Virus record (IMG/VR): IMGVR_UViG_3300029518_000091
Location: 1 to 4,015 of that record
DNA length: 4,015 nt
Strand: one strand, 5' to 3'
DNA from: a virus
Lineage: Duplodnaviria > Heunggongvirae > Uroviricota > Caudoviricetes
A program made the position numbers and the translations under genes. Below, in pieces: positions 3,531 to 3,925 of the stretch. Positions within the stretch are counted from its first letter, which is position 1; every line of letters starts with the position of its first letter. The notes below the pieces were generated by a model. It saw only the letters and a list, made by a program, of their open reading frames with translations, searched no databases and was not told where the DNA came from.

Positions 3531-3580
3531 GGATATTTATCAGGGTTTATCGATTTCAAATCCCTGGATATGTTAAGTCT

Positions 3581-3925
3581 TCAGGCCAGCGGTGGAGTCT
3601 TCAGAGAACCAGTAATTATTCCCGGTAGTTTTCCTCTGTAGGTTATCAACACATCCTGCGCCTCTAAAATTACGGGGCGCTTTTCCGGCAACGGACCATC
3701 CCCTTCACATAACCCGGCAGCAACATCCATGAAAAACTGCTTCGCCTGCTTTTTCGCCTCAGCTTCGTAAAACTCCAGCGTGGCATCTTCAGTACGGTCA
3801 AGACTAATCGCCACATCTGGCAACAACAGTGACGGATACCCACCAATTTCCAGTGCCACAGTAACAGTAATCTTATTCGGGTAATTATTTATCCCTTTAA
3901 CAACCAGTTCGTATTTTTTCTTCAT
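3581..3925 (-). CDS. ydfR-like small protein (DUF1327-like by synteny) inserted between holin and endolysin
   Basis: 114 aa: MKKKYELVVKGINNYPNKITVTVALEIGGYPSLLLPDVAISLDRTEDATLEFYEAEAKKQAKQFF... No TM segment. GGGGAGAG SD 7 nt upstream of ATG(3925), which lies 4 nt after the holin stop. The position between pinholin and lysozyme mirrors the essQ-ydfR-rrrQ order of the E. coli K-12 Qin prophage; this family assignment is from memory and synteny, not sequence search. Confidence 0.75.
   Translation of the reverse strand: MKKKYELVVKGINNYPNKITVTVALEIGGYPSLLLPDVAISLDRTEDATLEFYEAEAKKQAKQFFMDVAAGLCEGDGPLPEKRPVILEAQDVLITYRGKLPGIITGSLKTPPLA

Follow-up and report, generated by a model that had tools for sequence, protein, structure and literature searches.

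The stretch of DNA analysed here (4,015 nt, hereafter the window) carries a lysis cassette whose genes, read directly from the sequence, are all on the minus strand. The 3′ part of a gene for an S21-type class II holin (pinholin; 3930–4015, stop codon TAA at 3932–3930) runs past the window edge, and the 27 C-terminal residues that lie inside match Pfam PF04971 ("P21 holin S", E 1.4e-9); the complete protein of 71 aa, with M1 and M4 starts, was read in an identical chromosomal locus (L003, 3871–4086). After a gap of 4 nt (AGCG, 3929–3926) follows a gene of 114 codons (3581–3925), which the sequence-only reading had called ydfR-like, rightly so: the product belongs to DUF1327/YdfR, matching both Pfam PF07041 (E 2.4e-45; 153 bits over residues 1–112, for a cut-off of 25) and phrog_406 (E 4e-64). 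A spacer of 50 nt (3580–3531) separates this gene from that of an RrrQ-type SAR endolysin, R (177 aa, 2997–3530, ATG at 3530; Pfam PF00959, E 1.3e-23). An interval of ca. 300 nt precedes the i-spanin gene Rz (2231–2698; Pfam PF03245, E 1.7e-49), with the o-spanin gene Rz1 embedded in it (2478–2293; Pfam PF06085, E 3.7e-21). Beyond Rz/Rz1 there are genes for a lipoprotein with a TonB_C domain, a DUF3950 protein (on the opposite strand), an HNH endonuclease and the small terminase subunit. Endolysin R contains the motif E35-x8-D44-x5-T50 and a weakly hydrophobic N-terminus rich in Gly, Ala and Ser (YGLSAAVLALIAAGAPAP, with 10 of 18 residues being G, A or S, and a Kyte-Doolittle value over 19 residues of 1.74); the N-terminal stretch and the catalytic motif together are those of a SAR endolysin, a behaviour that is here predicted, as it was for the endolysins of Stx phages (PMC8136144). 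The dN/dS values of its gene are 0.05–0.065.

Several other features of the window were recorded. The interval between R and Rz contains a strong hairpin resembling an intrinsic terminator (2874–2906, minus strand) with a 13-bp stem (AAAACCCCG...CGGGGTTTT) followed by GTGTTTTCTG, which appears to be bidirectional because it is flanked by runs of A and T; phage BP-4795 has gene ant in this place. The same interval contains an ORF for a 32-aa protein with a single transmembrane segment (MAEKLSTWKFILIWLVFVIMASGYFIGQIRWW, 2700–2798, minus strand), which has its own Shine-Dalgarno (SD) sequence (-7.4 kcal/mol), ends 1 nt before the start of Rz and matches phrog_6632 (E 5.5e-20, unknown function); it differs from the ORF50 product (48 aa) encoded ahead of Rz in BP-4795. 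Downstream of Rz/Rz1, the TonB_C protein (113 aa, lipoprotein-like, 1566–1907, minus strand; Pfam E 9.7e-15) belongs to a family, phrog_1267, labelled in PHROGs as "Rz-like spanin", a label that looks carried over from its position and not from homology to Rz. Immediately 5′ of the small terminase gene (1–564, minus strand) is the HNH endonuclease gene (827–1192, minus strand), an order typical of HK97-like cos packaging modules.

Distribution of the S-ydfR-R arrangement

The insertion of ydfR between the pinholin and endolysin genes had been taken as unusual, and this does not hold. Gene order is identical in the Qin prophage of Escherichia coli K-12 (essQ-ydfR-rrrQ) and in phages H-19B, BP-4795, 86 and mEp460, as well as in many Stx phages. 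Three E. coli chromosomes are 100 % identical to the window, and PGAP annotates their genes as class II holin, "YdfR family protein", lysozyme and lysis protein. The region is thus a standard variant, of the Qin/H-19B type, of the pinholin/SAR-endolysin cassette of Escherichia lambdoid prophages, composed of an S21-like holin, ydfR, an RrrQ-type R and Rz/Rz1; the arrangement was already known and annotated, and its layout in itself adds nothing new.

Of 5426 complete E. coli genomes, 3256 (ca. 60 %) contain DNA similar to ydfR, a single genome having as many as 11 copies, and a tblastn search with the YdfR protein found matches in 101 phage records; the order S-ydfR-R was observed in K-12 Qin, in nine phage records and in eight loci from species genomes. 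The family is narrow, since only 51 cluster representatives were matched among 1.84 billion proteins. A scan of 185,579 species genomes (GTDB) with a single protein as query retrieved nothing, whereas an alignment used as query retrieved eight loci, all from Escherichia/Shigella except for two MAG contigs with the same cassette, and all eight displayed the same gene order.

We then compared 85 loci of this R clade with a complete interval from S to R. The distance from the stop codon of S to the ATG of R ranged from 311 to 1316 nt; there was no locus in which R directly followed S, and none in which the slot between them was empty (0/85 in both cases). A DUF1327 gene was found immediately after S in 71 loci, and an unrelated gene for a coiled-coil protein (MNHEEMNQR...) in the other 14. 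The coiled-coil gene, starting with MNHEEMNQRFSRLENEIAELNKKLS..., replaces the DUF1327 gene in loci L020, L056, L065, L071, L079 and nine others, with a 3-nt gap after the holin stop codon. The same coiled-coil module also occurs as a C-terminal extension of YdfR forms of 176–296 aa, indicating that modules shuffle within the slot, and the slot proteins vary from 72 to 329 aa, with many different tails.

The cassettes of H-19B, BP-4795 (ORF46-47-48) and dozens of Stx1a/Stx2 phages have 95–96 % nucleotide identity with the window over S-ydfR-spacer-R, and share with it the 114-aa ydfR and the 50-nt spacer, including the stem described below; between R and Rz, BP-4795 carries ant and a 48-aa ORF instead of the terminator-like hairpin and the 32-aa ORF. 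The K-12 Qin cassette (essQ-ydfR-rrrQ-rzpQ/rzoQ) is similar in its gene order, in the 4-nt gap between S and ydfR, in its S21-type holin and in its 177-aa RrrQ-type lysozyme. It differs in its spanin, of the DUF2514 RzpQ type, and in its YdfR, which has 103 aa, a different C-terminus and an N-terminal domain only ca. 47 % identical to that of the window. With phage 21 (S21-R21-Rz/Rz1) and DLP12 (essD-rrrD-rzpD) the window shares the Pfam family of the holin, the holin C-terminus ...KAARGE with an embedded SD, a SAR-type lysozyme with the motif E-x8-D-x5-T and the Rz/Rz1 spanins; they lack a DUF1327 gene, however, and their lysozymes (R21/RrrD, 165 aa) belong to a different lineage.

The holin-ydfR junction and the origin of the spacer

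In canonical P21-type cassettes R directly follows S, as the sequence-only reading had assumed, and this was confirmed in DLP12, where essD and rrrD overlap (TAATG) and the SD for rrrD resides within the 3′ end of the holin gene; R21 in phage 21 likewise uses the SD embedded in S. In the window, R starts 399 nt past the stop codon of S and lacks an SD, and it is ydfR that is preceded by the strong sequence GGGGAGAG (3933–3940, minus strand), situated inside the last holin codons and forming a duplex of -8.1 kcal/mol with the 3′ end of the 16S rRNA. The proposed tight coupling of ydfR to the holin gene, by a 4-nt gap and a strong SD, is therefore borne out. The gap is of 4 nt in 69 of the 71 loci with ydfR, and of 3 nt in the other two. 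Since the equivalent SD serves rrrD in DLP12, ydfR here takes both the place and the ribosome binding site (RBS) that R has in P21-type cassettes; and as this RBS is embedded in the last codons of the holin gene, YdfR should be co-produced with the holin from the late transcript.

In the S21 system, Lys2 is held to confer antiholin character on the longer holin product. The holin allele read in the identical prophage (L003, 3871–4086) starts with MYQMEK, instead of the MKSMDK of the K-12/P21 type, so that the three residues distinguishing the M1 from the M4 start bear no positive charge.

The junction between S and ydfR is fixed, and the 3′ end of ydfR and the interval up to R are extremely variable, with separations going from an overlap of 4 nt to more than 500 nt, some of them containing ORFs on the reverse strand. 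Alignment with the long ydfR form of phage 86 (locus L005) was split in two: positions 4015–3590 of the window align with 1411–1836 of L005, and positions 3593–3400 with 2694–2890, implying that ca. 857 bp are absent from this 114-aa form with respect to long forms of the gene. The two blocks meet at the sequence ACCG (3590–3593, minus strand), a deletion or recombination junction between the body of ydfR and a module linked to R (3531–3593, minus strand) that is found 5′ of R behind many different upstream sequences. From this module come the entire 50-nt spacer and the end of ydfR, namely its three final codons and its stop. The spacer is the remnant of a leader that travels with R, left by the ca. 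857-bp deletion, and the 3′ end of ydfR together with the ydfR-R interval is a hot spot where deletions arise and modules are exchanged. A further natural deletion, in L024, occurred between two CTGAAGACT repeats (3604–3596 and 3584–3576).

Many long-spacer variants contain an 8-bp inverted repeat, CGCCAGTG-N5/6-CACTGGCG, immediately 5′ of the R leader (L005, at ca. 2685–2705, L006, L008, L009, L012, L036, L061, L065 and L072), followed on the reverse strand by a run of T (e.g. CACTGGCGTTTTT), and which thus resembles a terminator for antisense transcription. The window keeps only the 3′ half of this repeat, as codons 111–113 of ydfR.

The leader of the endolysin gene

The 50-nt spacer was described as devoid of an SD for R, and we agree: its best duplex with the anti-SD has a free energy of +0.3 kcal/mol, as against -5.7 to -8.1 kcal/mol for six other starts in the window. 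An SD was likewise absent from every type of R leader across the ca. 100 loci examined, including that of K-12, which carries ATAAATATC(T/C) before the ATG. In its place, the start codon abuts on its 5′ side an A/U-rich segment, AUAAAUAUCC (3531–3540, minus strand), that is predicted to be unpaired and is followed by an A-rich coding start, AUGAACACCAAAAUCAAAUAC. The leader types examined carry this segment either unchanged or altered at one to three positions (most have ATAAATATCC, K-12 has ATAAATATCT and the L017 type TAATATATCC), the exception being the L068 group, whose leader ends in ATAAATCCCC (an approximate match). The mean predicted unpaired probability for positions -15 to +15 of R, 0.69, exceeds those of the six other starts compared in the window. 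These features suggest that R may be translated by SD-independent initiation at a conserved, A/U-rich and unstructured start region. In K-12, the stop codon of ydfR overlaps the start of rrrQ (ATGA), leaving no room for a spacer or a stem, and there R would be translated via this stop/start overlap.

Other ways of starting R were considered. A split SD brought near the start by a hairpin, as in T4 gene 38, was discarded, the sole purine-rich run being CAGGG, 32–36 nt from the AUG, which is itself the 5′ arm of the stem described below. An alternative start for R was also rejected, as no start codon is in frame further upstream and, after the initial Met, none occurs before residue 67. A scan for promoters and terminators found no such site in 3531–3600, so that an internal promoter for R is not supported.

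An inverted repeat, CAGGG-N16-CCCTG, does exist in the spacer, as had been noted, at 3541–3566 on the minus strand (arms at 3566–3562 and 3545–3541). It can form a 5-bp stem plus a small inner helix of 3 bp, and lies 11 nt upstream of the AUG of R, spanning positions -36 to -11 and leaving the start region untouched. From this repeat, the sequence-only reading had proposed a stem-loop regulating translation of the SD-less endolysin gene, a model that we now consider highly improbable. In its favour, besides the existence of the repeat, the stem is the predicted minimum free energy element of the spacer, and some of the variation among leaders is compatible with pairing: pair 5 is G-C, G-U or A-U, and pair 2 changes from A-U to G-U. 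In H-19B the 3′ arm reads TCCTG, which creates a G-U pair. The fold of the spacer (-7.6 kcal/mol) is, however, no more stable than expected from its composition (z = -1.24, with 23 of 200 dinucleotide shuffles at least as stable; z = -0.67 in a context of 101 nt). Nor did 13 distinct leaders containing the module show covariation above that of shuffled alignments (score 0.183 versus a shuffled mean of 0.163, reached by 210 of 500 column shuffles), and in them no pair of the 5-bp helix had changed on both sides, there being only one-sided changes and some broken pairs.

The distribution of the stem also argues against the regulatory model. At least five natural leader types lack it or have it only in broken form, including those of K-12, mEp460, "gttgccgataaatcctg", CGTGG and "gaatatttaatatatcc". 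In the CGTGG (8 loci) and TAGAG leaders the 5′ arm contains mismatches, and in K-12, in mEp460 and in the L020 (7 loci) and L017 (17 loci) types, which precede R genes 94–99 % identical to that of the window, it is altogether missing. Occlusion of the SD or of the start codon is not predicted either, since in every leader variant, as in the window, positions -10 to +15 come out as unpaired, and a scan of the whole window against Rfam (E ≤ 1) gave no match in the spacer. From these results we conclude that the stem is an incidental feature of the R leader, with no sign of acting as a translational regulator.

Domain structure and possible role of YdfR

The deduced YdfR protein has two parts of very different conservation. 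AlphaFold2, run on a shallow alignment of 32 sequences, models codons 1–72 (3710–3925, minus strand) with a pLDDT of 70–89 as three strands (residues 5–14, 18–27 and 38–43) and one long helix (residues 50–72), whereas the C-terminal module, codons 73–114 (PEKRP...SLKTPP plus a tail; 3581–3709, minus strand), has a pLDDT below 50 and is probably disordered. Between divergent alleles, dN/dS is 0.21–0.28 for codons 1–72, with saturated synonymous sites, and about 0.5–1.0 for codons 73–111. K-12, mEp460, Evi and Stx1_499 either lack the C-terminal module or have another sequence in its place, and in P0151 this module is joined to a different N-terminus; the smallest natural form, from phage Evi, consists of the N-terminal domain alone (72 aa). 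YdfR is acidic (pI 5.5) and has no transmembrane segment, with a maximum Kyte-Doolittle value over 19 residues of 1.18. A sequence search of solved structures returned only a chance match (E 1.4), and a Foldseek search of PDB and BFVD returned nothing at E < 0.001. The functional unit of YdfR would thus be an acidic, cytoplasmic β3-α domain formed by its 72 N-terminal residues.

Several phage proteins modulate host RNase E, such as T7 gp0.7, T4 Srd and phiKZ Dip. YdfR is acidic, as is Dip, and our searches revealed neither sequence similarity nor a significant fold match between YdfR and any of the three. It resembles them in that a small phage protein, in this case YdfR from K-12 only, was reported to bind RNase E (PMC13232886, 2026). 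In that work, residues 1–72 of K-12 YdfR were recovered in a two-hybrid screen and sufficed for the RNase E signal; the protein gave signals with Rne(1-597), and Rne(1-598), the catalytic N-terminal half, was co-purified with Strep-YdfR (PMC13232886). The eluate of Strep-YdfR contained nucleic acid resistant to DNase, for which the authors allow a contaminant as the RNA binder, and overexpressing ydfR altered few transcripts and left growth unaffected; they describe the neighbours of ydfR as genes of unknown function and draw no connection to lysis (PMC13232886). A survey of Stx phages covers the SAR-endolysin/pinholin cassette with no discussion of a ydfR-type gene (PMC8136144), the main text of an envelope-screen paper that is cited for ydfR makes no mention of the gene, and our literature search found no paper naming ydfR together with a holin.

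If the properties reported for K-12 YdfR, namely binding to the catalytic half of RNase E and co-purification with RNA, are carried over to YdfR from the window, the latter would most likely act on host RNA metabolism late in infection, as an accessory protein and not as a core component of lysis. An interaction with RNase E or RNA through the conserved N-terminal domain is the best functional lead available; it derives from overproduction assays with an allele ca. 47 % identical to this YdfR over residues 1–74, and the acidic pI argues against direct binding of RNA by YdfR itself. The strict placement beside the holin gene, across a junction fixed at 4 nt, would agree just as well with a role in lysis, such as the accessory one that the sequence-only reading had suggested.

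One form of such a role, to which we give a limited though real chance, is that of a soluble, cytoplasmic lysis-timing factor, antiholin-like in effect and stoichiometric with the pinholin, that would bind the charged C-terminal tail of the holin or the nascent SAR endolysin and so delay or sharpen triggering. Every DUF1327 gene that we found is immediately 3′ of an S21-type holin gene (gap of 3–4 nt, SD embedded in S) and 5′ of an RrrQ-type R, the family occurs solely in these Escherichia phages, and the fast evolution of the N-terminal domain (dN of about 0.45 between alleles) would suit co-evolution with a partner. P21/DLP12-type cassettes, however, dispense with a ydfR-type gene, the unrelated coiled-coil gene fills the slot in 14 of the 85 loci of the same R clade, linkage alone could account for the synteny, and against this role also count the lack, in the literature that we searched, of any paper naming both ydfR and a holin, and the fact that the sole interaction data point to RNase E. 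That the slot gene might instead be largely neutral mosaic cargo, lodged between two essential genes and inheriting a strong RBS without any specific function, seems to us rather unlikely. The range of lengths and tails of the slot proteins, the shuffling of modules, the relaxed dN/dS and predicted disorder of the C-terminal part of YdfR and the frequent microhomology deletions (e.g. the L024 type) would all agree with it; but the N-terminal domain remains intact, with a dN/dS of 0.21–0.28 over saturated synonymous sites, the slot is never empty, and ydfR-like DNA persists, often in several copies, in 60 % of complete E. coli genomes. A last idea, to which we assign very little probability, is an RNA-decay lysis timer, in which YdfR would bind the catalytic half of RNase E, alter cleavage in the SD-less leader of R and in this way set the amount of translatable endolysin mRNA, tying the supply of endolysin to the synthesis of the holin; this A/U-rich leader contains GA|UUU-like sites.

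Taken as a whole, the explanation that we favour, with moderate confidence, is that of a common cassette in which ydfR has taken over the RBS embedded in the holin gene, the spacer derives from a deletion, R lacks an SD, the stem is incidental and YdfR would be an accessory factor acting via host RNA metabolism. The structural and evolutionary part of this account, namely the common variant, the take-over of the RBS, the deletion-derived spacer, the conserved SD-less start of R and the incidental stem, is well supported. In major pathogens ydfR lies within the lysis cassette, beside stx, and ca. 60 % of the complete genomes of E. coli contain it.
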